Shown: positions 2,574-53,752 of the stretch, piece after piece
Layout of the letters: each line of letters begins with the position of its first letter
Numbering within the stretch: position 1 is the stretch's first letter
NCBI GenBank assembly: GCA_017538365.1
Contig: JAFYIZ010000026.1
Coordinates: 2,716 to 66,715, forward strand
Length of the DNA stretch: 64,000 bases
Origin: a bacterium
GTDB taxonomy: Bacteria > UBP6 > UBA1177
Reading direction: 5' to 3'
Program-made: the position numbers and the translations under genes
The notes under the pieces: model-generated
What the model was told of the DNA's origin: nothing
Database searches by the model: none
What the model saw: only the letters and a program-made list of their open reading frames with translations

Positions 2574-2583
2574 TTTTTTTCCA

Positions 2584-35555: not shown

Positions 35556-38500
35556 TTAATGCGGAACCCCTGCATAACAGCGGACATAGCCTGCAACTTC
35601 GGAATCAGAAACAGGTGTCAGTTCACCCGAAAGGAAATCAAACAGGTAATAGTGTTTGACATATTCTCCACCTACCCGTTCAACGGAATAAGCTATCTGA
35701 GAATCAATGTCTCCGACTTCGGAATAACCGCTCAAAGAATATTCCCTGCATCTCCAAGATTCCTCCGAAAATTCTTCATCCTGCAATTCCTCTCTGTTGC
35801 TGCATACATCAGGCTTTATCAAAAGTAAGAAATATGATAAGCGTGGAATATACCATTCGTAATCCAGACCTATTTCTGTACCGCCCTCTCCATCGTCATA
35901 CATCTCATCCCCATAATCCGTGGTATTAAGATTTGAGCAGAATGCCTGAGCCTCATCTATACTTGTAACAAAATCTGATTTATAAGACCAAACCAGTTGA
36001 TCGTAATTATAAGGATCCTCGATATAGTGAGGGTATTCTATTGTTTCTTCTTCAAATTTGTGGACGCAGCGGACTCTTGAAGCCGAATGATCTTCGTCAA
36101 CCAGCCTGTGATAAGCTCTCAAGAAATCAACCACGACAAAGTAATTTTGTCCGGGTTCCTCTTCGCTCTCTTCGCCTTCAGGCAATACCTTTTTAAACGA
36201 AGAAGACCAGAGGGAATAAAGATCGCCGAAAACGGAATATTCCCCTTTCGTATTCGGGTAACAGCTGATTTCTTCTCCAAAACAAAAGCCTGACTCATCT
36301 ATCTCAAGTTTTTTCAACTCTTCAAGCGTCGGAACCTTCCAGTTCGTCGAGCCGCCTTCGTCAAGCGTTTCACAGTATCTTGCCGCTTCTATCCAGTTCA
36401 CTTCTTTGTCGGAAACTTTTGACCAGACGAGTTTGTTTTCATAGTCGATGTACGGGAATTCCTCAGGTTCCGGCAGCATTTCGTCATATACGCACCTTAC
36501 AACAATATTTGATGCGTAGTCATCCGAAAATTCAGAAACTTCACCCGTTGCAGTATTTACCGACTTAACTTTTTCAGCAGCCTGGCTCACAGCGTCGCCT
36601 GAAACAAGATTGCCGTAGTCGTGCAGTACTGATTCTCCGAGGTCGTCGTTTTTTACAAGCGTTTTGAGTTCTTCAAACGTCGGAATCCTCCATTGGTTGG
36701 AGCCGTTAAAGTTAAGGTCAAGGCACTTTTGTGCGGCATCTTCCCATGAAATCCGGCGAGAAGGATCATTTGCGAAAATCAGTCTCGATGACCATATATT
36801 GCCCTCTGAGACGCATGGCATATAACCGGTTTCATCGCACATCGGAATAGTGTTTCTCGGCCCTTTGAGTTTTGACCTGACACAGCGGACCGCAAAACCG
36901 GAATCAGAGCCGGTGTCCGAATTTTCTTCGGCGATTTTAACCGTGCCGTCACGCATATCTACGACCCACGGCTGAATATCCGCGGAATTTTCACCTATAT
37001 TTTTGTAGGATGAAGTCGAAGTCATATAAACAGCTGACATCATACCAAGCATTGCTGAAAACAAATCAGGGTCATACGGTGCCGGATAGTCAAGAAGCGT
37101 TGCAAGTTCGTTTTTGTTTGGAACTCTCCAGTCGTAATATCCTGCATAGTCAAGGTTTTCACAAAAATCGAGAGCTTCCTTCAAACTTGCAACATTGTTA
37201 CTTGGACCCCACATAAGCTGGGTTGCCTGATCAAAATCAACACTTTCTCCGTCATCCAGTTCTAAAGAGATATAATTTTCCGTATTCACATCTCCGTATT
37301 TCTCGCCGCGGACGCACATATACCCTCTTGCAACGTCCAGCAATTCGGATTTTTTCAAACTTCCGTCTATCGAATAGTAATATCCTTCAGCTGAAGTCCA
37401 GAAATCAGTGTGTCCTTTCCCGTTACCGTCCAGCTCGGGGAAATAAGCCTCTCTGACTGCATAGCCCGAGTATCTGAGATCATGATTGGCAATCGTCAGG
37501 AACTCTTTCGGACTCGGAAGTCTCCAATCATCGTGACCGTCGTAAGAAAGTTCATCGCACCGGACAGAATTTTCGGTATACAAAGCCCCCTGCTTTCCAG
37601 TGAAAAGCCATGTGAGTCCGGTAACATTGTCTTGTGTCTGCCTGTATGAAGTTTCATCGTCATCAGCCTTTTCTATTTTTGTAAAACTCTGCGGCACGCA
37701 CGATTTTCTGATCACATACTGTGCATCCTGGCCATAGAAATCATCGCCTTCCCTCGGGCATTCGATAATTTTATCTGAACCGTTTCCGCAAGTTCTCTGA
37801 CCGGTACAGACAACATTCGAATAGCCGAAAACAATAACCGGTTCTTCATCGCTGTCGTCTGCATATTCTGTATCTTCATCATCATCGTCTGTATCATCGT
37901 CATTGTTGTCAGGAACCTCGCCGGAGTCGGGTTTTTCGTCGTCTTCGGGCTCAAGCGCGATAAAGGTGTAAGCAGTAAAGTGACCTGTCGTCATCATTAT
38001 CGGATCACCTGCAGCCGAATTCATAATCGGATCGCCTGCAGCAGTAACCATGATAGGATCGCCCGCGGCACTAAGCATTATCGGGTCGCCTCCGGCACTC
38101 ATCATAATCGGGTCACCTCCTTCATTAAGCATTATCGGGTCGCCTCCGGCACTCATCATAATCGGGTCTCCCGCTTCGTTTCTGCCTGTAATCTGAACAG
38201 CAACACCGGTTTCGCTGTAGCTCCAGTCACCTTTTTCCGTATTGTAGACAGCCGCGGTTATCACTTTGTTTTCGATGTTTACATTGTTTACCATCGAAAT
38301 CAGGACAGGTTTTTTGAAAATCGTTCCTGAAGGTTCGAATTCGACGATTTTGCTTATCAGTCTGTTGCCGCCTGTGCTGCCGTAGTACATCGCGTCGTAA
38401 ATCGTCATCGTGATAGTCGTGTTCGAATCAAGAGCCTCTGCCGGAATCTCGATTGAAACCGATTCATCGGAACTTTTGATCGTTCCGCCCTCTTCGGCTG

Positions 38501-38651
38501 AAATTTCCTGTGTTACCTGCTCTGTACCCTCTGCATTTCCTTCGCCATGATCATCGCCAGGGTCAGGAACCTCTTTTGTTTTCTTGCCGCTGCAGGCCGC
38601 AACCGCAAGAATAAGAACAAAAACTGAAATCAAACTGAAAAAGCGCTTCAT
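35556..38651 (-). CDS. giant paralogous surface lipoprotein A: ZU5-like domain with GDPIM repeats, acidic linker, 5 DUF1566 domains
   Basis: Lipobox MKRFFSLISVFVLILAVAAC. GGTIKSSDESVSIEIPAEALDSNTTITMTIYD...; 7 GDPIM repeats; TTGHFTAYTF; VVCTGQRTCG..IIECPREGDDFYGQDAQY. DUF1566 signatures DDWRLPSPKEF, YDWRVPNKNEL, NQWRIPTFEEL, TNWKVPTLEEL, YEWYIPRLSYF. Confidence 0.9.
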   Translation of the reverse strand: MKRFFSLISVFVLILAVAACSGKKTKEVPDPGDDHGEGNAEGTEQVTQEISAEEGGTIKSSDESVSIEIPAEALDSNTTITMTIYDAMYYGSTGGNRLISKIVEFEPSGTIFKKPVLISMVNNVNIENKVITAAVYNTEKGDWSYSETGVAVQITGRNEAGDPIMMSAGGDPIMLNEGGDPIMMSAGGDPIMLSAAGDPIMVTAAGDPIMNSAAGDPIMMTTGHFTAYTFIALEPEDDEKPDSGEVPDNNDDDTDDDDEDTEYADDSDEEPVIVFGYSNVVCTGQRTCGNGSDKIIECPREGDDFYGQDAQYVIRKSCVPQSFTKIEKADDDETSYRQTQDNVTGLTWLFTGKQGALYTENSVRCDELSYDGHDDWRLPSPKEFLTIANHDLRYSGYAVREAYFPELDGNGKGHTDFWTSAEGYYYSIDGSLKKSELLDVARGYMCVRGEKYGDVNTENYISLELDDGESVDFDQATQLMWGPSNNVASLKEALDFCENLDYAGYYDWRVPNKNELATLLDYPAPYDPDLFSAMLGMMSAVYMTSTSSYKNIGENSADIQPWVVDMRDGTVKIAEENSDTGSDSGFAVRCVRSKLKGPRNTIPMCDETGYMPCVSEGNIWSSRLIFANDPSRRISWEDAAQKCLDLNFNGSNQWRIPTFEELKTLVKNDDLGESVLHDYGNLVSGDAVSQAAEKVKSVNTATGEVSEFSDDYASNIVVRCVYDEMLPEPEEFPYIDYENKLVWSKVSDKEVNWIEAARYCETLDEGGSTNWKVPTLEELKKLEIDESGFCFGEEISCYPNTKGEYSVFGDLYSLWSSSFKKVLPEGEESEEEPGQNYFVVVDFLRAYHRLVDEDHSASRVRCVHKFEEETIEYPHYIEDPYNYDQLVWSYKSDFVTSIDEAQAFCSNLNTTDYGDEMYDDGEGGTEIGLDYEWYIPRLSYFLLLIKPDVCSNREELQDEEFSEESWRCREYSLSGYSEVGDIDSQIAYSVERVGGEYVKHYYLFDFLSGELTPVSDSEVAGYVRCYAGVPH
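37992..38177 (-). repeat. in-frame 27-bp tandem repeats encoding (A/G)(A/G)GDPIMxx, 7 copies
   Basis: NEAGDPIMMSAGGDPIMLNEGGDPIMMSAGGDPIMLSAAGDPIMVTAAGDPIMNSAAGDPIMM. It shows up on the + strand as a spurious HxRI(A/T)-type repeat ORF. Confidence 0.9.
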
Positions 38652-38779
38652 CAGGACCTCCTTTTTAACATTTTCCGTCGCATGGAATTATTTCTATACA
38701 ACAAGTTTTTTCAAGAAAAAAGGTGAATTAAATCGGGATTCTTTGACTCAGGAAATTTATCGGATCAGAAAAAAAGGCT

Positions 38780-41700
38780 TTACATAGACGTCGGCAGGCA
38801 TTCTTTTAAATCATCGGACCATTCGAACTCGCCGTCGCAGCTGCACTCATATTCCGATGCTGATTTAGGCAAGCATTCTCCGGTAGAATGTACCGACAGA
38901 TCGGCACACGGTTCATCTGCACACGGATTTACACATTTATGCTCTGCTGCTGTCCAGAATAAGCCTTCATCTTCATCGCAGCTGCAGTTGTATTCTTCTG
39001 CCGACATTGCAGAGCATTGTCCGGTAGAATGTACCGATTCTGCAGCACACGGATCACCTTCGCACGGATTCAGGCATGCCGAACCGTTCCAGAGGTAATC
39101 GGGAGCACAGCCGCACTCATACGTCGTTTCCGATACAGGTTTGCAGAGTCCCGTGGAATGCAGAACCGAGCCGCACGGATCAGTCGAACAGATGCTTGCG
39201 CAAATTGAACCGTTCCACTCGTAAAAATCAGGACAAATGCACTCGTAAGTTCTTGCGCTGTCATTCTCGACGACATTGCAGCGCGCAAGTCCGTTACAAG
39301 GATCGTCTGCACACGGGTTGGAACCGTCGGAAACACAGCGGACTCTGTTCGCATAAGTCACATCTATTGGATAAACATCTATTTCTGCAAAATAAAAGCG
39401 GTAGAGTTCATCGTCGTAGTCGACAGCCCACAGATAGTCGATATCGCCGAAAAGCGAATATTTTCCTGTAACATCAATAGGACACGGAGCTTCCTCTTCA
39501 GTGCAGTTTCTGACAATTGTTGAAACTTCATCGAATGTAGGCATTCTCCACCAGTGGTCAGGATCACCTTTGGAAAGTTCATAGCAGTATTCCTTTGCTT
39601 CCTGCAGTTTCAGGTAGTCAAAAGAAATATCGGACCATGTAATTCCTGTTTCCGGATCGGTATAAGGAGTCATTTCATAAGGAAGGCTTTCGTCGAGAAC
39701 GCATCTCTGGAAAAGCATTGAAACGGGAAGCTCTGAAGGCAACCCCAGGCTGCCGTATTCCGTGCTCAAAGCCCATAATCCATAACCATAATAATTATTA
39801 CTGTCATTAGCATTGAATGTAGCAGAAATCATAGCTCCGTAATCGTAGAAAAGAGTTTGTGACGGTTCGTCGCCGGAACATGGTCCTTCACTTTCACATG
39901 AACTCTGGAAACATTCATCCGTTATCCCGCAGGAGCCGTCTTTTTTGAGTCTTTCACTTGTAACTATCGAACGGATTTCATCTATAGTCGGAAGTCTCCA
40001 TTTGTTAGAACCCTTTTCTCTCAGGTCGCGGCACATTGAGGCAACATCTTCTGAATAAATCATCCTGCTGTCGCCATAGCCGTAATAGCCGTAGCCCTCA
40101 TAGAGATACGATTTGTTGAAACCCACAAAAATTTCGGGGTATATTACTGAAGACCAGATCGTTTCGTCTGCAGCCTGGCATGGTGCCACTCCGCTTTCAT
40201 TGCAAGCAGGGAAATCGGTTTTTTCATCAAGTTTGGATCTGACGCAACGGACGGAAATAGGCAGTTCGCTGTGTCTCATGATGTAAAATCCTCCGGCGGT
40301 CTTGCCGTTGAAGGTGTAAGCAGTTCCGTCGGTCATATCGACAACCCACTTGTATTCACCGGCACTGGTCGAACTCCAGAAAACATCGGCTTTCATGCCC
40401 GGGAATGAAGAAACGACATCCGATCCCAGCTTTGAATGGTCGATAAGCGTTACAAGTTCGTTTTTGTTGGGAAGTCTCCAGTCGCTGAAACCGGCATACT
40501 CAAGGTTTTCGCAGTAGTTAAGAGCATCTTTCAATGTTTCAGCCTTGCCGGAATCTTTCTGCCAGTACAGGTTGGTAGATGAATCAAAGACCATTTTATC
40601 GCCGCTTCTGGTGATTGAAGCGTAGTTGTCTGCATTTACTTTTCCGTATTCTTCACCGCTGACGCATATAAGAATGCCGTCGGAAAAAACGCTCTGGTAA
40701 CTTTCATAAGCTTTCGGAGGAATCGTCATGCCGTATTCCAGCGCATACATGTAGTTTTCGATTGAACTCCAGAGATAAATGCCGTATTTATCGCTGTAGG
40801 AAGAACTGTTGAATCCGTCATCGATGACCTTTTTGAAAAGGATCGGATCAGCCGGAACACCGCGGACAAGCCTGTCGTTCCATGCAAGAGTCATAAGTTC
40901 CTTAGGTGTCGGAAATCTCCAGTCTTCCTTGCCGCCGTAAGAGATGTCGCAGCCTTTTTTAACTCCTTCATAAGTTCCCTTTACGCCGAGATAAAGCCAT
41001 GTAAGACCGGTGTTGTCATCCTTTATTTCGACGAAATCGTTTTCAAGCACTTCAGGTTTTACGACTTCTTTCATCTTATGATTCGGAACGCACGATCCTC
41101 TTACCGCATACTGTGCATCCTGACCGTAGAAATCATTTTCCTCTTCAGGGCACAGAATCTGGGAACCTTCATCGTCAGTACAGATCGTCATGCCGGTGCA
41201 GAGAACTTTGGAATACAAAAGTTCAGGTTCAGGTTCCGGAATAACCGTGTCTGTGTCACCGTCGTCAGGTTCAGTTGTGTCGGTATCGCCGTCGTCAACG
41301 GGCTCGTCGTCATCTTCTTCGGCAACGGGCTCATCGTCATCTTCTTCGGCAACGGGCTCGTCGTCATCTTCTTCGGCAACGGGCTCATCGTCATCTTCTT
41401 CAGCAACAGGCTCGTCATCATCTTCTTCGGCAACAGGCTCGTCGTCTTCAGGTTCTTCTTCAACATCAATAAGGAAAAATGCATAAGCGGTAAAATGACC
41501 TGTCGTCATCATGATCGGATCGCCCGCACCGGCTTTCATAATCGGATCGCCCGCTGCAGTTACCATAATCGGGTCACCTGCCGCACTCAGCCTTGCGCCA
41601 TTACTCTTCATGATCGGATCACCGGCAGCATTCAGCATTATCGGGTCACCCGCAGCAGTTGTCATAATCGGATCGCCTCCAGGGGTTTTTCCATCAATTT

Positions 41701-42166
41701 TAACCGCAGCACCTGTCGGGCTGTAGCTCCACTCACCTTTCGTTTCCCTGTAAACCGCTGCTGTAACCGCTGTTTTCTTAGCTTTTCTGAGTGAGTCTTC
41801 ACCGCTTCCGAGACTTATCATCGAAATCAAAACCGGCTTTTGGAAAATTATGCCGGACGGCTCGAATTCTACTATTTTACTGATGACGGTTTCGCCTTCA
41901 GTGCCCGGATAATTCTTGGCTTCGTAAACTTTCATCGTGATAGTTGTGGCGGTGTCAAGAGCTTCTCCGGGAATTTCTATCGAAACACTTCCGTCGGAAC
42001 TTTCGATTTTACCGCCCTCTTCGGCTGGAATTTCCTGGGAGACCTCTTCTTCAAGCACCGGTCCGGTACTGTTGTTCTCGTTGTTTTCTTTTTTCTTCTT
42101 GCCGCCGCAGGATGCAACCGCAAAAATCAAAACAAAAACAAAAATAAGGCTAAAAACCCGTTTCAT
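38780..42166 (-). CDS. giant paralogous surface lipoprotein B: ZU5-like/GDPIM, acidic repeat linker, 4 DUF1566 domains, 4 C-terminal EGF-like modules
   Basis: MKRVFSLIFVFVLIFAVASC. 6 GDPIM repeats, then TTGHFTAYAF and (EEDDDEPVA)x5. Signatures EDWRFPTPKEL, SDWRLPNKNEL, NKWRLPTIDEI, HWWRMPTFDEV. C-terminal NPC..DPC....STG.C.....Y.C.C modules. Confidence 0.9.
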   Translation of the reverse strand: MKRVFSLIFVFVLIFAVASCGGKKKKENNENNSTGPVLEEEVSQEIPAEEGGKIESSDGSVSIEIPGEALDTATTITMKVYEAKNYPGTEGETVISKIVEFEPSGIIFQKPVLISMISLGSGEDSLRKAKKTAVTAAVYRETKGEWSYSPTGAAVKIDGKTPGGDPIMTTAAGDPIMLNAAGDPIMKSNGARLSAAGDPIMVTAAGDPIMKAGAGDPIMMTTGHFTAYAFFLIDVEEEPEDDEPVAEEDDDEPVAEEDDDEPVAEEDDDEPVAEEDDDEPVAEEDDDEPVDDGDTDTTEPDDGDTDTVIPEPEPELLYSKVLCTGMTICTDDEGSQILCPEEENDFYGQDAQYAVRGSCVPNHKMKEVVKPEVLENDFVEIKDDNTGLTWLYLGVKGTYEGVKKGCDISYGGKEDWRFPTPKELMTLAWNDRLVRGVPADPILFKKVIDDGFNSSSYSDKYGIYLWSSIENYMYALEYGMTIPPKAYESYQSVFSDGILICVSGEEYGKVNADNYASITRSGDKMVFDSSTNLYWQKDSGKAETLKDALNYCENLEYAGFSDWRLPNKNELVTLIDHSKLGSDVVSSFPGMKADVFWSSTSAGEYKWVVDMTDGTAYTFNGKTAGGFYIMRHSELPISVRCVRSKLDEKTDFPACNESGVAPCQAADETIWSSVIYPEIFVGFNKSYLYEGYGYYGYGDSRMIYSEDVASMCRDLREKGSNKWRLPTIDEIRSIVTSERLKKDGSCGITDECFQSSCESEGPCSGDEPSQTLFYDYGAMISATFNANDSNNYYGYGLWALSTEYGSLGLPSELPVSMLFQRCVLDESLPYEMTPYTDPETGITWSDISFDYLKLQEAKEYCYELSKGDPDHWWRMPTFDEVSTIVRNCTEEEAPCPIDVTGKYSLFGDIDYLWAVDYDDELYRFYFAEIDVYPIDVTYANRVRCVSDGSNPCADDPCNGLARCNVVENDSARTYECICPDFYEWNGSICASICSTDPCGSVLHSTGLCKPVSETTYECGCAPDYLWNGSACLNPCEGDPCAAESVHSTGQCSAMSAEEYNCSCDEDEGLFWTAAEHKCVNPCADEPCADLSVHSTGECLPKSASEYECSCDGEFEWSDDLKECLPTSM
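41296..41452 (-). repeat. near-perfect 27-bp tandem repeat (about 5.8 copies) encoding EEDDDEPVA
   Basis: caacgggctcgtcgtcatcttcttcgg is iterated with only g/a and c/t wobble differences. Confidence 0.9.
41507..41685 (-). repeat. 27-bp GDPIM repeats, 6 copies (one spacing interrupted)
   Basis: PGGDPIMTTAAGDPIMLNAAGDPIMKSNGARLSAAGDPIMVTAAGDPIMKAGAGDPIMM. Confidence 0.9.
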
Positions 42167-42317
42167 GCGCTCCTCCTATTTAAAAAACTGGAATAACCGC
42201 GACAATTATTAAAAATTTAAACAAAAAGGCAAGGAATTATTTCTGCTTTTTTAAGTTTTCTGAAATAAAAATATTTACGGATTATTTAAGACAAAATCTG
42301 CGGAAAAATGAAGATTT

Positions 42318-45679: not shown

Positions 45680-48600
45680 TTACTCTTGAATAACACACTC
45701 TTCACCATCCCAAAGGGCATTAGCTGTGCAGCCGCAGCTGTAAACACCGGCTTCGCTCGTGCATGTTCCGTCGGAATTTTCAATTTCCAGACAGGGATTA
45801 TCCTCACACGCATTCGGATAGGAAACGCAGCGGACGTATTTCTTTCTGTCTCCGTAGAATGATCCGTCTTCATATCCGGCAACCAGAACCTGACCGGTAG
45901 TAAAATCGGCATAGAAATGGTAACCGGTTCTTCCGAGGTATGTGGAAGCAAAAATTCCGAGATCGCCGAATACCGGGAAATGACCTTCAAAAGCAGGATT
46001 GTCACAACCGCCCAAAGCGACACTGACACCCGGATTTCCCTGATTGTTGTTTGTAGGTCTTATAAATGTCGAACGTCCTTCTTCACAATCGAGAATACTT
46101 GCAAATTCCGCAAGGTCTGGGACTCTCCACTCGGTCAATCCTTCGTATCCGGCTCCGTTATTCATTGCATTCAGACTCTCGCAGTATGCTACAGCGTCTG
46201 AATGATTTGTGAGAGGTCCTGATTTTTCAGACCATAAAAGATTCGAATCCTCATCGTAATACGGAGCATCAATGATCGGATCAGTCTCGGGATCATCCGT
46301 TGATCTGACGCAGCGGACTTTAGCATCGGAATAAGAATTTATATTCTCGGTAATACCTTCCTGATAACCCGTCATAAAATCCAGGACATTCAAAGACAGG
46401 GCAGTTTCAACTGATATTGTTGAAGACCAGAGTGCGGCAAGTTCCGCGAAAACTGAATAGTTGCCGGTCAGATTGGGTTCACAATCGTCTCCGTCACAGC
46501 TCTTGACGAGAGTCTCGACTTCTTCCAATGCCGGAACTCTCCAGTTGTCCGAATTGCCTTCGACAAGATCTCTGCAGTATTCAGCCGCCTCCATCCATGT
46601 CATATCGCCTTTTGAACGCGAAGACCAGATAAGTTCGTTTTCCGGATCGGTGTACGGGAATGTAATATCCGGAAGAGATTCATCTTTTACGCAGCGGACA
46701 GTTATCATCGGATACAAATCATCGTTACGTGCGTAAGAGACGATCGAACCGGTGAAGAAATCAACACCCCATGCATGGTTTTCATCGTCGATCATCGTTG
46801 ATGAGACCATATATGTGTCATTGTAGAAAATAGATTCTATCGGAGCACCCGTCCTGCATTCTTCATCAACGTAACATGCCCCGGCATTACATGTGTCGGC
46901 AACATCGCAGTCTCCGCCTGTTGTGAGAGCATCACTCTTGAGTATCGTGCGGATCTCGCTGATTGTCGGAAGCCTCCACTGAGAAATACCGCCGTTATTT
47001 GATTCTCGGCACATTCCGGCAGCCATGACATAGTCGGGATCGTAACTCCCAGTGTTAATATTCTGCGACCAGACAATACCTGTTTCGGGGTCTTCGCACG
47101 GCGTATAGCCGCTTTCGTCGCAAACAGGAACCGCCTGATATTCGGCGAGATCATCATTCCTGACGCAGAGAGTATACGCAGTTGTAACATTTCCTTGAGT
47201 GTCACCGACACTGAACAGCGTTCCGCCGCCGACATCAATGATGAAAGGACCTTCAGATCCGCCGTAAGTCTGAGCAAATGTCGAAGTCCAGTAATTTCCT
47301 CCGATGATATTCTGGAAGTCACTCTTGTTGTCACCAAAACCTTTACCTGTATAGTTAAGAACAGTCGCAAATTCGTTTCTGTTCGGAAGTCTCCAGTCGG
47401 AATATCCTGCATACTCAAGGTTTTCGCAGTAAGCGAGAGCCTGAGACCAGCTCATGTTGAGATTGTCCGCAGCAGCTTTCCACATAAGGTCAGTCGCGGA
47501 ATCCGTAACAACGGTGCCTCCGGAAATATTTTTCAAAGTAAATGTGCCTGAAACACCGTATTCTTCTCCGCTTACACAAGCAAAAGAAGCTGAACCATCT
47601 TCTTTACTCTCATATTGCATGTGACCGTAACCGATATCCATAACCAGGACTGCATCGTCTCCTGTTTTCTGATTCTGGTAATATGTGCCTGACCAGTATA
47701 TAGTAGGCGAAGCAAAATCCCATCCGAAGTATGCCATGCGGAGAGCCGGATAGCTTGTTCCGCTGTCAATAATGCTCATAAGCTCTTTCGCGGTCGGAAG
47801 TCTCCATTCGCGACCGTCACCTGTGTCAAGCGTGTCGCAGAATGTATATGCATTTTCCCATGTTCCGCCGTTTGAATAGAGATACCATCTCAAACCTGTA
47901 GAGAGATCGTCGACTATATTGCAAGTGTCATTATCCTGAATGCAGTTTCTTCCCTCAGATATTTTTTCGTAAGTCTGCGGAGTGCAGGACTGTCTTGCAG
48001 TGTAGCTTGCATCCTGACCGTAGAATTCCTCGCCTTCAGCCGGACAGTCTATGACGTCTCCTTCAGCGCCAAAGCACCATGTCTGACCTGTGCAGAGGAC
48101 TTTTGCGACAGGTACGCTGCATTTCACAGTATTTTCGTTCCATTCATATCCTTCAACACACTGGTATGCGCAGTCGCCTTCCTCAGCATAGTGAGCCGTA
48201 TAGTACGGATATCCCTTGCCGTTCCAGGTCGGGATGTATGTGTCTCCGTTTACCCATGCAGCATTTTCGGGAAGCTCGCCGCAGGATTCAGCCGGCTTTG
48301 TATCGGACTGACAGCTTTCTTCTTCGTAGTGGTAGTCGGTGGAACACTCGTAAGTACATTCCTCTCCCTCATCCTCGAAATATGTTGCCGCAGGTTCGGT
48401 TGACCATGCTTCATCGATCCAGTGAGGTGTGTAGGTCGAAGCTACCCATTCTGCGTTATCCGGAAGGTTCGCGCACTCCTGCTCTTCACCGGTATTTGAT
48501 TTGCAGACGCTGTCTTCGACGTGCTGAGCATCCGTGCATGCACAGGTTCCGTTAGTCGCAAACCATGTGAAAGTCGGTTTACACTGATAAGCGCAATCAC

Positions 48601-50620
48601 CTTCTTCAGCGTAGTTAGCCGATGCGCTCGAATAATCCTCGCCAGTCCATTCCGGTATGTATGTGTTTCCGTTCACCCACTGTGCGTTTGCCGGAAGAGT
48701 TCCGCAGGATTCAGCCGGCTTTGTATTGGACTGACAGCTTTCATTCTCGTAGTGGTAGTTGGCAACGCACTCGTAAGTACATTCCTCTCCCTCATCCTCG
48801 AAATATGTTGCCGCAGGTTCTGTCGACCATGCTCCATTACTCCAGTGAGGTGTGTAGGTCGAAGCTTTCCAAGCCGCGTTAGCCGGAAGGTTAGCACAGG
48901 TCTTCGCCGTACCGGTATTGGGTGTGCATACGTTGTCTTCGACGTGCTCTTCATCCGTGCATGCACAGGTTCCGTTAGTCGCAAACCATGTGAAAGTCTG
49001 TTTGCACGTAAATGCGCAGTCGCCTTCTCCTGCATAGTTTGCCGATGCGCTCGAATAAGCATTGCCGTTCCAGGTCGGAATATATGTGTCACCGTTTACC
49101 CATGCAGCATTTGCAGGAAGTGTGCCGCAGCTTGCAGCAGCCTGGGTATTCGATTTGCAGACGCCGTCTTCAACGTGTTCTGTCGACTGACATTTACAGC
49201 TTGAATCAATCCAGCTGTAGGTTGATTTACATTTGTAAGCGCAGTCGCCCGATTCAGCGTAGTTTGCAGTTGCGCTCGAATAAGCACTGCCGTTCCAGGT
49301 CGGAATATATGTGTCACCGTTTACCCATGCAGCATTTGCCGGAAGTGTGCCGCAGCTTGCAGCAGTCTGTGTATTCGATTTGCAGACGCCGTCTTCAAGG
49401 TGCTGTTCATCGGTACATTTACAGCTTGAATCAATCCAGCTGAAGGTCGGTTTGCATTTGTAAGCGCAGTCGCCCTCCTCAGCGTAGTGAGCCGATGCGG
49501 AAGAGTATTCCTCGCCGTTACGGGTCGATTCGTATGTATCACCGTTTACCCACTGCGCATTTTCGGGAAGCGTGCCGCAGGAGCGTGTTACAATCTGACA
49601 GTCGTCAGAGCAGGAAGCACCGATTCCTTCGCCTTTGCCGTATTCAGGATCAGCCTTATCACAGGCTTCGTTGCTCTGTTTCGTGCCGTCACCGCAGTAA
49701 GCAGCTGCACCGGCCTGTTTTTTACATTCTTTCGTGCAGACTTCGCAGCTTTTTTCGCCGTAAACGCAGTCGGTTTTGCCGTTCTCTTCGCCCCGGTCAC
49801 ACTCTTCACCTTCCTCAACAACACCGTTTCCGCATTCTGGGGCATTGTCTTCATCGGGAGAGACGTCTTCATCGCCGTCATTCGTATCAGCATCAGCATC
49901 GCCGGTACCTGCCTGAGAATCAGATTCTTCAACAACTATAAAAGTGTAAGCCGTGAAGTGACCGGTCGTCATCATAATCGGGTCACCCGCAGCAGCGTTC
50001 ATGATAGGATCACCCGCTGCATTCGACATGATCGGGTCGCCTGCTGAAGCAAGCATGATCGGATCACCTGCTGAAGCAAGCATGATCGGGTCACCGGCAG
50101 CATTCATCATAATCGGGTCGCCTGCAGCATTCAGCATGATAGGATCGCCTGCAGCAGTCTGCATGATCGGGTCGCCCGCCGCATCTTTGCCGACAAGAAT
50201 AGCATACTCACTGTGTTCGCTGTAGCTCCATGCGCCTTTAGCTTCGTTGTAAACAGCGGCTGCAACTACTTTGTCTTTGATTTCGTTGTTTGCCGTCATC
50301 TTGATGATAATCGGTTTTTTGAAAACCGTGCCGCTTGGTTCGAACTCGACGACCGTGCTTATAACTTTTTCGCCTTTCGCCGTAGAATAGTGCGAACTTT
50401 CGTAAACACTTACCGTGATAGTAGTATTTGAATCAAGAGCATCTGCAGGAATATCAACGGCGACCGATTCATCGGAAGTCGATACCGTTCCGCCTTCTTC
50501 AGCGCTGATTTCCTTTGAGACCTTCTCCTTAACGTCATCTTTTTTCTTCTTTTTGTCGCCGCAGGATGCGACCGCAAAAACCAAAATGAAAATCAAAACC
50601 AAACTTAACACACGTTTCAT
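45680..50620 (-). CDS. giant paralogous surface lipoprotein D (1646 aa): ZU5-like/GDPIM, Myxococcus-type Cys-rich repeats, 7 Cys-module repeats, 5 DUF1566 domains, EGF-like end
   Basis: MKRVLSLVLIFILVFAVASC. 8 GDPIM repeats, then TTGHFTAYTF. CGNGVVEEGEECD and YCGDGTKQSNEACD repeats. Seven SCGTLP.NA.WVNGDTY.. / CANLP.NA.W..STYTPHW modules. Signatures REWRLPTAKEL, SDWRLPNRNEF, SQWRLPTISEI, DNWRVPALEEV, TEWRVPDLAEF. Confidence 0.9.
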   Translation of the reverse strand: MKRVLSLVLIFILVFAVASCGDKKKKKDDVKEKVSKEISAEEGGTVSTSDESVAVDIPADALDSNTTITVSVYESSHYSTAKGEKVISTVVEFEPSGTVFKKPIIIKMTANNEIKDKVVAAAVYNEAKGAWSYSEHSEYAILVGKDAAGDPIMQTAAGDPIMLNAAGDPIMMNAAGDPIMLASAGDPIMLASAGDPIMSNAAGDPIMNAAAGDPIMMTTGHFTAYTFIVVEESDSQAGTGDADADTNDGDEDVSPDEDNAPECGNGVVEEGEECDRGEENGKTDCVYGEKSCEVCTKECKKQAGAAAYCGDGTKQSNEACDKADPEYGKGEGIGASCSDDCQIVTRSCGTLPENAQWVNGDTYESTRNGEEYSSASAHYAEEGDCAYKCKPTFSWIDSSCKCTDEQHLEDGVCKSNTQTAASCGTLPANAAWVNGDTYIPTWNGSAYSSATANYAESGDCAYKCKSTYSWIDSSCKCQSTEHVEDGVCKSNTQAAASCGTLPANAAWVNGDTYIPTWNGNAYSSASANYAGEGDCAFTCKQTFTWFATNGTCACTDEEHVEDNVCTPNTGTAKTCANLPANAAWKASTYTPHWSNGAWSTEPAATYFEDEGEECTYECVANYHYENESCQSNTKPAESCGTLPANAQWVNGNTYIPEWTGEDYSSASANYAEEGDCAYQCKPTFTWFATNGTCACTDAQHVEDSVCKSNTGEEQECANLPDNAEWVASTYTPHWIDEAWSTEPAATYFEDEGEECTYECSTDYHYEEESCQSDTKPAESCGELPENAAWVNGDTYIPTWNGKGYPYYTAHYAEEGDCAYQCVEGYEWNENTVKCSVPVAKVLCTGQTWCFGAEGDVIDCPAEGEEFYGQDASYTARQSCTPQTYEKISEGRNCIQDNDTCNIVDDLSTGLRWYLYSNGGTWENAYTFCDTLDTGDGREWRLPTAKELMSIIDSGTSYPALRMAYFGWDFASPTIYWSGTYYQNQKTGDDAVLVMDIGYGHMQYESKEDGSASFACVSGEEYGVSGTFTLKNISGGTVVTDSATDLMWKAAADNLNMSWSQALAYCENLEYAGYSDWRLPNRNEFATVLNYTGKGFGDNKSDFQNIIGGNYWTSTFAQTYGGSEGPFIIDVGGGTLFSVGDTQGNVTTAYTLCVRNDDLAEYQAVPVCDESGYTPCEDPETGIVWSQNINTGSYDPDYVMAAGMCRESNNGGISQWRLPTISEIRTILKSDALTTGGDCDVADTCNAGACYVDEECRTGAPIESIFYNDTYMVSSTMIDDENHAWGVDFFTGSIVSYARNDDLYPMITVRCVKDESLPDITFPYTDPENELIWSSRSKGDMTWMEAAEYCRDLVEGNSDNWRVPALEEVETLVKSCDGDDCEPNLTGNYSVFAELAALWSSTISVETALSLNVLDFMTGYQEGITENINSYSDAKVRCVRSTDDPETDPIIDAPYYDEDSNLLWSEKSGPLTNHSDAVAYCESLNAMNNGAGYEGLTEWRVPDLAEFASILDCEEGRSTFIRPTNNNQGNPGVSVALGGCDNPAFEGHFPVFGDLGIFASTYLGRTGYHFYADFTTGQVLVAGYEDGSFYGDRKKYVRCVSYPNACEDNPCLEIENSDGTCTSEAGVYSCGCTANALWDGEECVIQE
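48115..49590 (-). repeat. long in-frame tandem repeats (225-bp units and a 423-bp two-module unit) encoding 7 Cys-rich modules
   Basis: ggtcggaatatatgtgtcaccgtttacccatgcagcatttgc... at 49073 recurs at 49298, a period of 225 bp. gattcagccggctttgtat at 48285 recurs at 48708, a period of 423 bp. Long stretches are nearly identical. Confidence 0.85.
49970..50185 (-). repeat. 27-bp GDPIM repeats, 8 copies
   Basis: DAAGDPIMQTAAGDPIMLNAAGDPIMMNAAGDPIMLASAGDPIMLASAGDPIMSNAAGDPIMNAAAGDPIMM. Confidence 0.9.
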
Positions 50621-50689: not shown

Positions 50690-53600
50690 TTACTCCTCAA
50701 TATATCTTACGCAGCGGACATAACCTGAATTTTCATAACCCCATGACTCGTTGCTTCCGCCTACAACTTCGCCTGTCGTGAAATCAAAGAGATACGGATA
50801 GATACTTTTGCTGCCCCATTCGTCCTCACCTTCGTTTCTGTCTGAAGTCCAGAATTTGCCGTAATCGTTGAATATAGAATGACTCTTGAATGTATAGTCG
50901 CAGAAACAGCGTGCAGTCTCTCCTTCACTAAGAATAACCTCTTCACTGCATGCACCGCTGCAATCCATATCCTCTTCGACGAGAAGATATAAATAAGACC
51001 AGACATCAGGCAGGCGCCATTCGCTGGAACCCTCGTACTCTTCCTCGTTCAGAGAATTACAGAAAGCTTCTGCGTCAGCGATAGTACCTGTTATCAGTTC
51101 AGATTTCTTTGACCATGCCATATCTTCAACATAATACGGGAGAGTCCCTTCAAAATTGTCGGGGTCTTCAAGCGGATCAGAAACGGAACGGACGCAACGT
51201 ACCTGCAGATCGGCATAGCTGTCCGAAAGATTTTTGTTCTGATCTGTCATAAGATCGATAAAATCAAGCGTCGTCATGTAGGACCCGTCAAAAATATCGC
51301 TGCTCAGAAGAATCGGCATATCCGAGAAAAGCGAATATTTTCCGGTAAGATCGGGAGCACATGCAGATGTACCCTCAAGATCGCAGTTTCTTACCAGCTT
51401 CTGCAATTCCTCCAGAGTCGGAACTCTCCAGTTGTCGGAACCGCCTTCAACAAGCGTTCCGCAGTATTCAACAGCATCCCTCCAGTCGCCTTCTTCCGAA
51501 ATTGACGACCATACGAGGCCGTTCGTCTCGTCGGTGTAAGGTGCCTCCTTCGGATCTTCCAACGTGTTGTCAAGAACACATCTTACGACAAGCTGCGGCG
51601 CATATACTGTCGAAATATCGGACATTCCGCCTGTCGTCATATCTATCGTCCAGACATTCCACTGGTCACGCTCATAGTCCGCATTGGCATTTGAGAATGT
51701 TCCCGAAAAAAGGATTCCGTAGTCGCGGAGTGCTGTTTCATGTCCTGCTAATTCGGCTGAAGTGCAATCCGACTCATAAGCGCTGTAATCTGAATGTTCA
51801 ACCGTAACTCCGCATGTTCCGCCTGTTTTGAAAACATCGTCGGTGAAAAGAGACCTTACATCGTCTATTGTCGGGATTCTCCACTTTCCGCCCTTCATAT
51901 TGCGGCAGTCTTTTGCCACATTCGACCAGTGGACGGATTCCATTTCATACTCATTGTAAATCAGTCTCTGCGACCATGTGATGTTGTTTGCGTCTCTGCA
52001 CGGAGAATAGCCGTCTGCGCCGCATGCCGGTATTCCGTTTTCGGGATAGGGCGTAAGATCGCTTCTGACGCAGATGACAGAATAAGTTTCACCTGAATTG
52101 ATTCCTCTTGTCCTGGATTTAACCTGAGGATGATCCGACATACGCAATCCCATTTCGCCGGTTTTCATATCGATCGCAACTGCGCCGATAGTCATCGTGA
52201 AAGTCGATGTAACAAAATTTTCAGCCGGCAGTCCCGGGAAAGATGATGCAGGATTCGACTTGGAATAGTCAACAAGGCTCGCAAGCTCGTTTTTGTTCGG
52301 AAGTCTCCAGTCGTCATGACCTGCGTAATTCAAGCCTTCGCAGTATGCAAGCGCCTCAGGCCACGTTTTTCCGCTGACGGAAGTTTTCTGCCAGAAAAGA
52401 TTGGTTTTCGAGTCAAAAATCATCTCCTGACCGTTTTCATTCTTCGAAGTATAGTCCGAAGCCGCAACTTCACCGTATTTATCACCTTTAACACAGAGCA
52501 GAGCTTTATAGTCTGACTGACCATCGCTGCCGATACTGCCGGTATAGGTATCGTAGTAGAAATTCTTATCCGAAGTCCAGAATGACTCGGTTCCTTCCCA
52601 ATCCACAGTAAAATATACCGATTTGATCTCTTTGCCGGAATTAAGGTTGTTGAAAATATCGTGGTCGGCAATAGTCAGGAACTCGGCAGGTGTCGGCATT
52701 CTCCATCCGCCGCCGGCATATTCTGAAAGAGTTTCTTCGCAATACGGAGCTATATCATCGTAGGATTCTCCGCTTTCCGATGTGAGGATCCATGTAAGCC
52801 CGGTATTATTGTCCTTTATCTGCTGATACGGCGTGACATCATTTTCCGCCTTTTCAATTTTCTCAAAACTCTTCGGAACACATGATTTTCTGAAAATATA
52901 TCCCGCATCCTGACCGTTCAGCGCCCCGCCTTCTTTCGGGCATTCATCCAGAACACCGTTTTCGCCGAAGCAGTTTCTGAGTCCGGTGCAGATGACTTTG
53001 GAATAAAGAGGTTCCGGTTCAGGGATTACGTCTTCGTCACTATCGTCAACCGGATCTTCATCGGGTTTGTCACCGTCGCCTTTCTTCTCAACCGCAATAA
53101 AAGTGAAAGCGGTGAAGTGACCGGTAGTCATCATAATCGGGTCACCCGCAGCAGCGTTCATGATCGGGTCACCTGCAGCAGTAGCCATAATCGGATCTCC
53201 CGCTGCACTCATCATGATAGGATCACCTGCCGCATTCTGCATGATAGGATCGCCTGCCGCATTCAGCATTATCGGATCACCCGCAGCACTAGTCATAATA
53301 GGATCTCCGGCCGCGTCTTTGCCGACTTTTACAGCCACACCGGTCTCGCTGTAGCTCCACTCACCTTTAGCTTCATTGTAAACCGCTGCTGTAATGATTT
53401 TATTTTCAATGTTTTCGCCGTTTTCCATAGTAATCAGAACAGGTTTTTTGAAAATCGTACCGTTCGGCCCGAACTCTACGACTTTGCTTATAACTTTTTT
53501 ACCGTCCGTTCCGGCATAACCCGATGCATCGTAGATCGTCATTGTTATGGTCGTGTCGGAATCGAGAGCACCGGCCGGAATATCAATTGACGTTTTTCCG

Positions 53601-53752
53601 TCTTTACTTTCGACCTTTCCGCCCTCTTCGGCTGAAACTTCCTGAGAGACCTGCTCTTCAAATTCAGGTTTTTCCTTACTTTTCTTCTTGCTGCAAGCCG
53701 CAACCGCAAAAACCAAAGCAAAAACCAAAACAATAATGAAAAAGCGTTTCAT
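50690..53752 (-). CDS. giant paralogous surface lipoprotein E: ZU5-like/GDPIM, short linker, 5 DUF1566 domains
   Basis: MKRFFIIVLVFALVFAVAAC. 7 GDPIM repeats, then TTGHFTAFTF. VICTGLRNCFG...CPKEGGALNGQDAGY. Signatures GGWRMPTPAEF, DDWRLPNKNEL, GKWRIPTIDDV, DNWRVPTLEEL, SEWRLPDVWSY. Confidence 0.9.
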   Translation of the reverse strand: MKRFFIIVLVFALVFAVAACSKKKSKEKPEFEEQVSQEVSAEEGGKVESKDGKTSIDIPAGALDSDTTITMTIYDASGYAGTDGKKVISKVVEFGPNGTIFKKPVLITMENGENIENKIITAAVYNEAKGEWSYSETGVAVKVGKDAAGDPIMTSAAGDPIMLNAAGDPIMQNAAGDPIMMSAAGDPIMATAAGDPIMNAAAGDPIMMTTGHFTAFTFIAVEKKGDGDKPDEDPVDDSDEDVIPEPEPLYSKVICTGLRNCFGENGVLDECPKEGGALNGQDAGYIFRKSCVPKSFEKIEKAENDVTPYQQIKDNNTGLTWILTSESGESYDDIAPYCEETLSEYAGGGWRMPTPAEFLTIADHDIFNNLNSGKEIKSVYFTVDWEGTESFWTSDKNFYYDTYTGSIGSDGQSDYKALLCVKGDKYGEVAASDYTSKNENGQEMIFDSKTNLFWQKTSVSGKTWPEALAYCEGLNYAGHDDWRLPNKNELASLVDYSKSNPASSFPGLPAENFVTSTFTMTIGAVAIDMKTGEMGLRMSDHPQVKSRTRGINSGETYSVICVRSDLTPYPENGIPACGADGYSPCRDANNITWSQRLIYNEYEMESVHWSNVAKDCRNMKGGKWRIPTIDDVRSLFTDDVFKTGGTCGVTVEHSDYSAYESDCTSAELAGHETALRDYGILFSGTFSNANADYERDQWNVWTIDMTTGGMSDISTVYAPQLVVRCVLDNTLEDPKEAPYTDETNGLVWSSISEEGDWRDAVEYCGTLVEGGSDNWRVPTLEELQKLVRNCDLEGTSACAPDLTGKYSLFSDMPILLSSDIFDGSYMTTLDFIDLMTDQNKNLSDSYADLQVRCVRSVSDPLEDPDNFEGTLPYYVEDMAWSKKSELITGTIADAEAFCNSLNEEEYEGSSEWRLPDVWSYLYLLVEEDMDCSGACSEEVILSEGETARCFCDYTFKSHSIFNDYGKFWTSDRNEGEDEWGSKSIYPYLFDFTTGEVVGGSNESWGYENSGYVRCVRYIEE
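53129..53317 (-). repeat. 27-bp GDPIM repeats, 7 copies
   Basis: DAAGDPIMTSAAGDPIMLNAAGDPIMQNAAGDPIMMSAAGDPIMATAAGDPIMNAAAGDPIMM. Confidence 0.9.

Follow-up and report, generated by a model that had tools for sequence, protein, structure and literature searches.

Five tandem genes of an uncultured rumen bacterium, in the 64-kb window (the whole stretch of DNA that was analysed), encode large lipoproteins in which an N-terminal ZU5 domain probably cleaves itself and keeps hold of an adhesin-like passenger of Lcl_C domains by a strand tether, the array itself having arisen by gene duplication and been reshaped in part by recombination. If this is correct, the adhesin part of each protein is cut from its lipid anchor and retained by one strand.

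The array comprises five intact, co-oriented paralogs on the minus strand: A (35556..38651, 1031 aa), B (38780..42166, 1128 aa), C (42318..45653, 1111 aa counted from ATG, or 1126 if an upstream GTG is used), D (45680..50620, 1646 aa), and E (50690..53752, 1020 aa). Both this arrangement and the shared plan described in the initial annotation were borne out, with every element present in all five proteins. Each begins with MKR...AVA[AS]C, a lipobox whose cysteine is Cys20, and continues with the N-terminal domain, six to eight nonapeptide repeats, the GHFT motif, a D/E/P-rich linker, a CTG..C...CP.EG..(F/L)(Y/N)GQD(A/S) cysteine module, and Lcl_C (DUF1566) domains. The cysteine modules lie, on the minus strand, at 37722..37808 in A (CTGQRTC...CPREGDDFYGQDA), 41114..41200 in B, 44595..44678 in C, 48008..48094 in D, and 52904..52990 in E, where the variant ALNGQDA occurs. 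B also has C-terminal EGF-like Cys repeats, and D carries a 611-aa Cys-rich insert. A search bearing on whether the CTGQ..GQD module with DUF1566 is a known pairing, as stated earlier, returned nothing.

From A to E, the genes are separated by 128, 151, 26, and 69 bp. The 26-bp D-C spacer (45654..45679, minus strand) contains an AGGAGG ribosome-binding site for C, consistent with translational coupling or co-transcription; the earlier suggestion that part of the array is co-transcribed is supported for this pair, and D and C probably share a transcript, with E the probable first gene of an E-D-C transcript. Promoter-like TTGAAA-16-AATAAT sequences on the minus strand lie 5' of E (53864..53891), within a box common to A and the closest genome, L017, and 5' of A (38687..38714), and two weaker matches lie 5' of B (42205..42264). 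At 1..1491 on the plus strand, a frame open from base 1 encodes the last 496 aa of another Lcl_C protein, with two Lcl_C domains and Cys-rich repeats; it had been read as a truncated sixth relative, but it is the end of a gene that extends past the window start. The window also encodes a LolCDE-like ABC transporter, a cell-envelope context.

The N-terminal domain, which had not been recognised, is a ZU5 domain by Pfam, profile search, and structure prediction. All five paralogs passed the gathering cutoff of PF00791, as did 15 of the 16 relatives examined. With the core, repeats, HFT, and last strand included, the modules span (minus strand throughout) aa 35-234 in A (37950..38549; 28.0 bits, cutoff 21) and B (41465..42064; 31.2 bits), aa 35-231 in C (44961..45551; 34.3 bits) and D (49928..50518; 29.1 bits), and aa 35-222 in E (53087..53650; 29.9 bits). 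Family profiles searched against the PDB matched the ankyrin and ZO-1 ZU5 domains at E=3e-7 and E=1e-9 (ankyrin at E=1e-9). An AlphaFold2 model of the E module had a pLDDT of 83.4 and a pTM of 0.77, with the core above 90 and the middle GDPIM repeats at 55-62. The best Foldseek matches of this model were all ZU5 domains, among them ankyrin (E=2.6e-5) and UNC5b (E=1.1e-4, TMq 0.52, 199 columns); below these came the GAIN domain of BAI3 (E=3.3e-3), then those of CELSR1, Gpr126, and CD97. FIIND and Nup98 were not among the best 50 matches.

GHFT lies at residue 211-223 across the five paralogs, at the turn ahead of the last long ZU5 strand, toward the C-terminal end of the domain. The predicted autocleavage site, between F and T, falls in H224-F225-T226 of A (37974..37982) and B (41489..41497), H221-F222-T223 of C (44985..44993) and D (49952..49960), and H212-F213-T214 of E (53111..53119), all on the minus strand. 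In the E model, F193 and T194 form the turn between strands 185-192 (PIMMTTGH) and 195-202 (AFTFIAVE), with a pLDDT of 82-91. Across 72 locus genes and the five window genes, H and F are invariant, the +1 position is only T or S, and the +2 position is free (A, S, D, T, E, N, V, or R). A word-based search across 5.8e9 proteins gave no full-length match that had lost the motif. It was also present in all 36 remote, repeat-free lipoprotein-ZU5 relatives found through the ZU5 core alone (profile positions about 1-135), as HFS in 25 and HFT in 11, at residues 146-178 and followed by a hydrophobic strand. Only eight columns are invariant in an alignment at 22-50% identity, and the H and F of the motif are two of them. 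Some matches have the GPS-like sequence CG.TDH[FL]TNFA[IV]LL. What had been noted as an invariant GHFTA strand is thus the canonical ZU5/GPS-type autoproteolysis motif, which alters the mechanistic reading of the locus. In FIIND, PIDD, and Nup98, the cleavage site is at the C-terminal end of ZU5, ahead of the last strand (D'Osualdo et al.; PMC3210808), and HFT appears equivalent in position to the HFS of these cleaving domains. This equivalence is drawn from topology and the model, because the profile alignments to PDB ZU5 domains end at about residue 134, short of HFT.

Ankyrin, UNC5, and ZO-1 are eukaryotic ZU5 domains that do not cleave. The array domains could likewise be non-catalytic scaffolds or binding modules, with the Phe anchoring the last hairpin of a single covalent chain, a reading we consider rather unlikely. 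The nearest structural and sequence matches are indeed non-cleaving ZU5 domains, the nucleophile is absent from one relative, P0088, whose motif reads GHFG, and cleavage is inferred rather than directly observed; experimental or proteomic proof of it, for this family or for any bacterial ZU5, was not found in the literature searched. However, a scaffold explains neither why +1 is limited to two hydroxyl nucleophiles while +2 is free, nor why the His is invariant among relatives at 22-50% identity, and non-cleaving UNC5b has Leu where the cleaving domains have Phe (PMC3210808).

The self-cleavage that we favor would begin with processing of the AVA[AS]-C lipobox by signal peptidase II and Lgt, which would lipidate the Cys ahead of a Lys-rich tether. 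The ZU5 beta-sandwich would then lie at the mature N-terminus, and its last two strands, ...AAGDPIMMTTGH and T-A-(Y/F)-T-F-I-x-x-E, would be connected through a tight turn carrying H-F-T. By analogy with PIDD, Nup98, FIIND, and GAIN, the Phe would be buried and would strain the backbone there, the Thr (or Ser) hydroxyl would attack the F-T bond in an N-to-O acyl shift, and the ester would then be hydrolysed. About 20 kDa of protein would stay on the lipid anchor, cut from a passenger 800-1430 aa long. Because the new N-terminal strand of the passenger, TAYTFI..., would remain inserted in the ZU5 sandwich, non-covalent contacts would retain the passenger, which force, unfolding, or exchange could then release.

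The AAGDPIM nonapeptides, inserted ahead of the cleavage-motif strand, are tandem duplications of the turn and strand that enter the cleavage site. On the minus strand, there are seven [xx]AAGDPIM units in A (37995..38183), six in B (41510..41689), seven in C (45006..45212), eight in D (49973..50188), and seven in E (53132..53320). Their peptide is near-invariant although their DNA is only 74-83% alike, which, with the intact ORFs and the low dN/dS, speaks for functional genes. They probably form a beta-meander beside the cleaved hairpin, and we would guess that they tune tether stability.

C-terminal to the motif, the passenger would have an acidic, disordered stalk that varies in length, followed by a small disulfide module and then four to five C-type-lectin-like Lcl_C domains. 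Pfam found four Lcl_C stretches in A and B and five in C, D, and E, and a custom HMM, which located the same domains, added a weak fifth in A. The arrays occupy 35577..37640 (A), 39347..41029 (B), 42360..44408 (C), 45851..47917 (D), and 50747..52822 (E), all on the minus strand. From one paralog to another, the passenger domains share just 30-60% identity. In 82 of 96 cross-paralog comparisons, the best match had the same ordinal position, so the proposed positional equivalence holds. In Legionella Lcl, the Lcl_C domain forms the C-type-lectin-like head that binds glycosaminoglycans (PMC11162425), which makes the surface adhesin role suggested earlier plausible for the array proteins; the passengers would most likely bind glycans or other rumen surfaces. 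Sequence by itself does not prove surface exposure, and the 64-kb window yielded no dedicated exporter of surface lipoproteins, so the proteins might instead face the periplasm, in the outer membrane inner leaflet or the inner membrane, with envelope-structural or polysaccharide-handling roles. We regard this as distinctly improbable, since very large proteins with long acidic stalks and multi-domain lectin-like, EGF-like, and sushi-like Cys-rich passengers are typical of extracellular display, and the Lcl_C relatives of known function (Lcl, Lsa25, and the FimD tip) are surface adhesins. The lineage-specific expansion and plasticity of the locus also suit a surface role.

ZU5 autopeptidases on bacterial surface proteins, including their fusion to adhesion modules in general terms, were predicted in 2012 (PMC3482391), and the array is a fresh version of that kind. 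ZU5 acts as a releasing peptidase in RHS toxins (PMC3482391), toxin release being the setting in which bacterial ZU5 was first described, and DUF1566 can carry the variable regions of diversity-generating retroelements (DGRs; PMC11661182). That the array encodes polymorphic toxins or contact-dependent effectors with a ZU5-released C-terminal toxin, or DGR targets, is nevertheless extremely improbable and is effectively refuted by domain content. Pfam detects neither a toxin domain nor RHS repeats nor SpvB, the gaps of 26-151 bp are too small for immunity genes, and the scanned ORFs of the 64 kb include no reverse transcriptase or DGR.

The repeat-bearing family was seen only in ruminant-gut MAGs of the UBP6 lineage. 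The same cassette precedes one to six Lcl_C domains, DUF6273, DUF4215, or uncharacterised Cys-rich passengers, with passenger lengths of 281 to >3766 aa, and in the remote relatives the passengers are FGE-sulfatase, lipocalin-like, or A2M-like. The lipoprotein-ZU5 cassette is portable across passengers.

The array would have originated by duplication of the whole multi-domain gene and been remodelled by gene gain and loss, recombination between paralogs, and change in repeat number. At the prmA-gyrA locus, genomes with GyrA at least 96.8% identical have two to five of these genes; in L017, gene A is a 170-bp remnant with a foreign gene inserted at its site. Synonymous divergence forms a mosaic along the genes, with dS of 1.26 in the E N-terminus versus 0.19 in its passenger and the reverse in D. 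This variation, together with the passenger divergence, a polymorphism in repeat length between strains, and the separate putative promoters of E, B, and A, could reflect a repertoire of antigens or adhesins switched between paralogs for ligand breadth or for evasion of immunity, phages, or predators. We give this reading some weight, but doubt it, and it is compatible with self-cleavage rather than exclusive of it. The genes are under purifying selection (dN/dS 0.02-0.44 in all regions), array promoters have no flanking inverted repeats, gene starts are free of long homopolymer runs and of short tandem tracts, and the absence of a DGR among the scanned ORFs also counts against it. Moreover, orthologs of each paralog are retained across genomes, which suggests stable sub-functionalisation. 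The locus is thus dynamic, as its description as diversifying implied, but signs of positive selection or phase variation were not seen.

Among known systems, PIDD, Nup98, and FIIND self-cleave between F and S of HFS or SFS, and GAIN domains between L and T of HLT; the array proteins have HFT at what appears to be the corresponding turn. The proposed passenger of the array proteins, cut but held by a strand, would be much like that of the animal adhesion receptors.

Five intact minus-strand ORFs make up the array: gene A (35556-38651; 1031 aa), B (38780-42166; 1128 aa), C (42318-45653; 1111 aa), D (45680-50620; 1646 aa), and E (50690-53752; 1020 aa). The collinear plan ascribed to these paralogs in the initial annotation was borne out in all five. 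Each protein begins with MKR...AVA[AS]C, which places a cysteine at position 20 in every case, and continues with a conserved domain of ca. 110-125 aa, an array of AAGDPIM nonapeptides (7, 6, 7, 8, and 7 copies in A, B, C, D, and E, respectively), GHFT with a hydrophobic strand, a linker, a Cys module (CTG..C...CP.EG..FYGQDA), and Lcl_C (DUF1566) domains. By pattern match, a signal peptide ending in the lipobox [LVI][ASTVI][GAS]C is present in 5/5 window proteins and 75/75 family genes; they are predicted bacterial lipoproteins, i.e., substrates of Lgt and LspA. The Lcl_C domains had also been described as positionally equivalent among paralogs. This held in 82 of 96 comparisons, in which the best cross-paralog match had the same ordinal position, indicating that the whole multi-domain gene was duplicated as a unit. 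The supposed sixth, truncated relative at 1-1491 has a reading frame open from base 1 and is cut merely by the window edge.

The gaps between the genes, from A to E, are 128, 151, 26, and 69 bp, with AGGAGG lying within the 26-bp D-C gap. A minus-strand scan placed the best promoter-like matches (TTGAAA-16-AATAAT) upstream of E and A, inside a box common to both, with weaker matches upstream of B and none upstream of D or C. Based on these positions, together with the gaps and AGGAGG, E-D-C is probably co-transcribed, as had been suggested for at least part of the array, and B and A have their own predicted promoters. The 5' leader of E (53795-53860), with ca. 100 nt between the promoter-like box and the RBS, carries the nested inverted repeats GCGGCG...CGCCGC and CGAGATA...TATCTCG; this leader is conserved in the homologous locus of RGIG2292 (L017). 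The E-D spacer contains a 14-bp palindrome (50646-50674). Neither element has an Rfam match; the Rfam scan of the window found tRNA alone. The interval between gyrA and gene A (35468-35544) contains a G/C-rich hairpin in two copies, CCCCTCTCCA...TGGAGAGGGG, possibly a REP-like element or a terminator acting in both directions.

The conserved N-terminal domain, which the initial annotation had left unnamed, matched Pfam PF00791 (ZU5) at 28.0-34.3 bits in 5/5 paralogs, above the curated cutoff of 21. When compared to the PDB, a repeat-spliced family profile matched the ankyrin ZU5 at E=3e-7, and a broader profile with remote relatives matched the ZU5 domains of ankyrin (E=1e-9) and ZO-1 (E=4e-5). 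A first AlphaFold model, built from a shallow alignment of 18 sequences, had a pLDDT of 59.7 and did not resolve the repeats; a second, built from 36 sequences including remote relatives, reached a pLDDT of 83.4 and a pTM of 0.77, with the core above 90. The top 16 Foldseek matches in the PDB were exclusively ZU5 structures (TM up to 0.66, target-normalised), including ankyrin-B (E=2.6e-5) and UNC5b (E=1.1e-4; TMq 0.52 over 199 columns). These were followed by the GAIN domain of BAI3 (E=3.3e-3, probability 1.0), then CELSR1, Gpr126, and CD97. Pfam, profile searches, and the AlphaFold-Foldseek comparison agree, and the N-terminal domain of A-E is, by these predictions, a ZU5 beta-sandwich. No domain match, such as UPA, was found in the linker C-terminal of the single last strand.

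The GHFT sequence, previously listed as merely an invariant strand, shares both motif and topology with the autoproteolysis sites of PIDD, Nup98, and FIIND. Self-cleavage occurs at HF/S in PIDD and Nup98, at SF/S in FIIND, and at HL/T in GAIN (slash, scissile bond); these sites lie at the C-terminal domain end, in the turn before the last long strand, and have a buried aromatic or hydrophobic residue and a Ser/Thr nucleophile (PMC3210808, PMC3482391). In the model of E, F-T occupies the turn of a hairpin built from strands PIMMTTGH (185-192) and AFTFIAVE (195-202), at a pLDDT of 82-91. In all 77 genes examined (72 from 49 loci and the five of the window), GHF is followed by T (55) or S (22) only, and the position after that is free to vary (A, S, D, T, E, N, V, or R); conservation among the 72 is circular, because that genome scan was seeded with MM[TAM]TGHF[TS]. 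Independent evidence comes from word-based search hits and core-only HMM hits. GHF[ST] was retained in every full-length match of a word-based search with the N-terminal 236 aa. An exhaustive HMM search returned 2,126 cluster representatives at E<=1e-3, repeat-only matches included; the remote lipoprotein-ZU5 relatives among the best 150 of these, which have no GDPIM repeats and were matched through the ZU5 core alone, carry HFS (25) or HFT (11) in 36/36 cases, at residues 146-178 with a hydrophobic strand next. A cluster look-up of the remote relatives yielded metagenomic proteins only. Eight columns are invariant in an alignment of the window family with such relatives (22-50% identity), among them the motif His and Phe, and some remote family-profile matches have the GPS-like sequence CG.TDH[FL]TNFA[IV]LL. 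Thus, the signature of autoproteolytic ZU5 domains, [HS]-F-[ST] at the turn before the last strand, was found in 77/77 genes, in 36/36 remote relatives, and in the E model. The pattern of conservation fits catalysis, and sequence, model, and analogy together lead us to predict that the "invariant strand" is a ZU5/GPS-type autoproteolysis motif at which cleavage would occur. In one 654-aa family member (P0088), GHF[ST] is replaced by GHFG and the GDPIM units by degenerate, hairpin-like repeats. This protein may be a derivative that does not cleave, and, as a single case, it hints at a coupling of the repeats with cleavage.

Across 75 proteins, we counted 527 GDPIM units with the consensus [LTNM][SNAT]AAGDPIM, spaced by exactly 9 residues in 388 cases. 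Most proteins have between three and nine units, one has 18, and the last Met lies 4 residues before the motif His in 74/75. The peptide is near-invariant despite units that are only 74-83% alike in DNA, which argues for selection at the protein level. When the window family was aligned with its repeat-free relatives, the last unit and motif (AAGDPIMMTTG-HFT) fell on the strand G..VSGxVT-HFS, and GDPRM occurs once or twice at the equivalent site in a few remote relatives. Thus, the array is a tandem amplification of the turn-plus-strand leading into the predicted cleavage site. The AlphaFold model has short strands at PIMx with a period of 9, the middle units having a pLDDT of 55-62. We know of no other ZU5 or GAIN domain described with an insertion of this kind at the cleavage hairpin. 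RTX repeats (GGxGxDxUx) likewise have a period of 9 and a Gly-Asp turn with a short hydrophobic strand; however, the GDPIM consensus differs, there was no match to Pfam HemolysinCabind (PF00353) at E<=0.01, the PDB hemolysin match was at chance level (E=0.75), and the alignment derives the units from the ZU5 strand preceding HFS. An RTX beta-roll was therefore rejected, and Ca2+ binding by the repeats would be pure speculation. We also rejected GDPIM as a partner-binding motif shared with neighbouring small lipoproteins, since no GDPIM ORF was found outside family genes in ca. 0.85 Mb of loci and the window. The AGDPIM motif does occur outside the ZU5 context, in small metagenomic lipoproteins of 116-145 aa (P0030, P0033, P0037, and P0128) with 5-6 irregularly spaced copies and no ZU5 or HFS; in the loci examined, none is encoded close to a family gene. 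A second architecture is seen in further large relatives, of up to 3498 aa (P0096, P0107, P0113, and P0160 among them): in these large lipoproteins, an acidic region and other domains come first, the ZU5-like segment, GDPIM, and H[FY]S follow at 400-640 residues from the N-terminus, and "...LPV" comes after the site. One of these, MBR4490117.1, shares a MAG with a family member.

C-terminal of the single last ZU5 strand, the passenger has a D/E/P-rich linker of 32-94 residues, or 611 aa in D including a Cys-rich insert. Its 4-5 Lcl_C stretches per protein match PF07603 at 154-255 bits (cutoff 34.9), and sub-threshold NCBIfam matches indicate likeness to Lsa25 and to FimD C-terminus/tip adhesins; a PDB sequence search with the passenger of E (residues 241-1020) gave no match. 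In Legionella Lcl, this domain forms the C-terminal head, which folds like a C-type lectin and is a binder of sulphated glycosaminoglycans (PMC11162425). In B (41292-41446) and C (44724-44894), the linker is encoded by 27-nt tandem repeats specifying EDDDEPVAE-type units, with 5.7 copies at 92% identity in B. The B protein of a strain in sample ERZ27256923 has two 9-aa units (18 aa) fewer, showing that the length of the acidic stalk is polymorphic, unless the difference reflects assembly collapse. The 611-aa insert of D (48095-49927; residues 232-842), which separates the ZU5 module from the Cys module, contains a DUF4215-like CGNGVVEEGEECD motif and, after it, ca. 8 tandem Cys-rich units of 70-75 aa with a sushi-like look (C..LP.NA.W....Y...W.G..Y......Y.E.G.C.Y.C...Y.W). 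TRF detected periods of 225 and 423 nt in it, and there was no Pfam match. The D proteins of other strains, at 100% identity over the rest of their length, contain an extra 141-aa insert unit that follows residue 586, a difference for which assembly collapse is also possible. The C-terminus of B (38780-39346; residues ca. 941-1128) consists of EGF-like Cys-rich repeats (DPC...C.C...Y.W.G..C) after the Lcl_C array, with no Pfam match above threshold, and D ends with a similar short stretch.

All genomes in which the repeat-bearing family was found are ruminant-gut MAGs, namely UBA1177 and UBA1209 (both labelled UBP6) and RUG, RGIG, Tb.RUG, red-deer, and reindeer bins, with several loci per genome; the 49 loci that were retrieved contain ca. 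70 genes from 12 MAGs. The window GyrA shares 96.8% identity with that of UBA1177 and 99.2% with that of RGIG2292, so the window belongs to this lineage, and exact copies of protein A are present on contigs of three ruminant metagenome assemblies. Elsewhere, the lipobox-ZU5-GDPIM-HF[ST] unit precedes 1-6 Lcl_C domains, DUF6273, DUF4215, or unassigned Cys-rich passengers of 281 to >3766 aa, and the passengers of remote ZU5-HFS lipoproteins are FGE-sulfatase, lipocalin-like, or A2M-like. By these sequence comparisons, the unit is a portable cassette in a narrow lineage.

The array always lies between prmA and gyrA, with five genes in the window, four in UBA1177, two in RGIG10122, and four in RGIG2292. 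In the last of these, the closest genome, the gene A site (L017 16760-17320) retains the promoter box and a 170-bp 5' remnant (95% identity to window 38426-38594), the rest being unrelated sequence; a 523-aa ATPase-like gene (L017 8331-9902) lies between the D and C orthologs. The genes are not pseudogenes, a possibility that the initial annotation had considered: the ORFs are intact, and dN/dS between the window and L017 is 0.02-0.44 in every region, indicative of purifying selection. The dS values are mosaic (1.26 for the N-terminus of E vs 0.19 for its passenger, and 0.13 vs 0.80, respectively, for D), which points to recombination between paralogs. Two other sources of variation were rejected: invertible promoters or phase variation, because no flanking inverted repeats were found, and variable proteins of a diversity-generating retroelement (DGR), because the 20 flanking ORFs scanned contain no RT domain.

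Several neighbouring features of the window are recorded here. An ABC ATPase and a MacB/FtsX-type permease resembling LolD/LolCE are encoded on the plus strand at 9623-11562; judged by sequence, the pair fits a diderm cell in which lipoproteins are sorted to an outer membrane. A 1794-aa ORF (13000-18384, plus strand), whose sole Pfam signal is a Met-zincin/astacin-like HExxH at residues ca. 910-1023, probably encodes a large secreted metalloprotease. Positions 1-4000 have a GC content of 36-39% vs ca. 46% elsewhere and may be a mobile or recently acquired segment. Besides the Lcl_C gene cut by the window edge, this region encodes a 331-aa protein that matches no family (1473-2468) and, on the minus strand, an ORF6N-domain protein (2584-3555).

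Under the mechanism that we envisage, the protein would be exported by Sec and lipidated at Cys20, after which the ZU5 domain would fold, the Thr would undergo an N-to-O acyl shift, and the F-T bond would be hydrolysed. The passenger would then be kept by its new N-terminal strand, TA(Y/F)TFI, within the ZU5 sandwich, and an acidic stalk of variable length would project the lectin-like Lcl_C array. We further suggest, tentatively and with more doubt than confidence, that the only hold of the lipid-anchored ZU5 stub on its giant lectin-type adhesin is one embedded beta-strand, with the lineage-specific GDPIM beta-meander as a latch tunable by force, ions, or pH, allowing the adhesin to be shed or swapped on demand; this would be a bacterial counterpart of the cleaved tethers of adhesion GPCRs, polycystin, and SEA mucins. 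Such shedding could serve, for example, detachment from plant particles, protozoa, or phage. On this tentative reading, the array would represent the first characterised prokaryotic surface anchor of the ZU5/GPS autoproteolytic type.

An unknown domain and an invariant strand are hereby converted into a precise, testable prediction, namely cleavage between Phe and Thr of GHF/T. Autoproteolysis of the ZU5/GPS type is known from animal proteins of apoptosis, the inflammasome, and the nuclear pore, and from adhesion receptors; if the prediction is true, it would also be a general bacterial way to mount large adhesins on a lipid anchor. UBP6 is, to our knowledge, a candidate phylum with no cultured member, and the family, expanded to many copies per genome, provides an entry point to the function of the cell surface in this uncultured ruminant-gut lineage. 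Cleavage would also support the proposed bacterial origin of eukaryotic ZU5/GPS modules (PMC3482391).

Like Legionella Lcl, Lsa25 of Leptospira, and the FimD tip adhesin, the window proteins have the Lcl_C domain, in 4-5 copies each. In contrast to Legionella Lcl, they have no collagen-like stalk, arrange Lcl_C in tandem arrays, and come from a rumen-dwelling organism. Bacterial ZU5 domains were predicted, without experiment, to be "releasing autopeptidases" (Zhang, Aravind et al. 2012; PMC3482391), and that study noted them, together with adhesion modules, in "large bacterial cell surface proteins" and proposed cleavage at the base of surface structures. Its examples share an N-terminal ZU5 in large secreted or surface proteins; however, they are mainly RHS/SpvB toxins and enzymes, and the lipoprotein anchor, GDPIM repeats, Lcl_C arrays, and UBP6 are absent from the paper. 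We rejected the array as a set of polymorphic toxins, since Pfam gives ZU5 and Lcl_C alone, with no RHS, SpvB, or toxin domain, and the 26-151 bp gaps hold no immunity gene.

The GAIN/GPS modules of adhesion GPCRs and polycystin-1 (HL/T), by the logic predicted here for the window proteins, split a membrane anchor from an adhesive ectodomain at a hairpin with the pattern H-hydrophobic-cut-T/S, leave the cleaved strand embedded, and have a weak but real fold match (BAI3). This likeness, as judged by Foldseek, is at the fold level only and is to subdomain B. The GPS consensus C-x-C-x-H-L-T/S-x-F-A-V-L-M, with its two disulfides, and the helical subdomain A are both missing: there is no Cys near the site (..MMTTGHFTAYTFI..), and the model is all-beta. 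The orientation is also reversed relative to adhesion GPCRs, with the anchor N-terminal and the adhesin C-terminal, and the window proteins have neither a 7TM domain nor a tethered-agonist role.

The likeness to PIDD1, the Nup98 C-terminal domain, and the NLRP1-CARD8 FIIND comprises the ZU5 sandwich, [HS]-F-[ST] at the turn before the last strand, the invariant Phe, the hydroxyl residue at P1', and a cleaved C-terminal part expected to stay non-covalently bound (PMC3210808). Unlike these proteins, the window family is bacterial and, by prediction, extracytoplasmic and lipid-anchored; its cleavage is predicted from sequence, model, and analogy, with Thr as the commonest predicted nucleophile, and a nonapeptide array of 54-72 residues is inserted before the site. 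There is no death-fold domain, nor the UPA domain that follows ZU5 in FIIND, PIDD, UNC5, and ankyrin, and one strand leads into a disordered acidic linker. The initial annotation did not recognise the fusion as a described family. ZU5 is a known domain, and the array is less exotic than initially supposed; in our literature search, neither an experimental study of a bacterial ZU5 nor a description of a lipoprotein-ZU5-GDPIM-Lcl_C protein was found. Relative to the known systems, the lipoprotein anchor, the nonapeptide array inserted at the cleavage hairpin, the joining of the module to Lcl_C arrays, and the expansion in UBP6 appear to be new.
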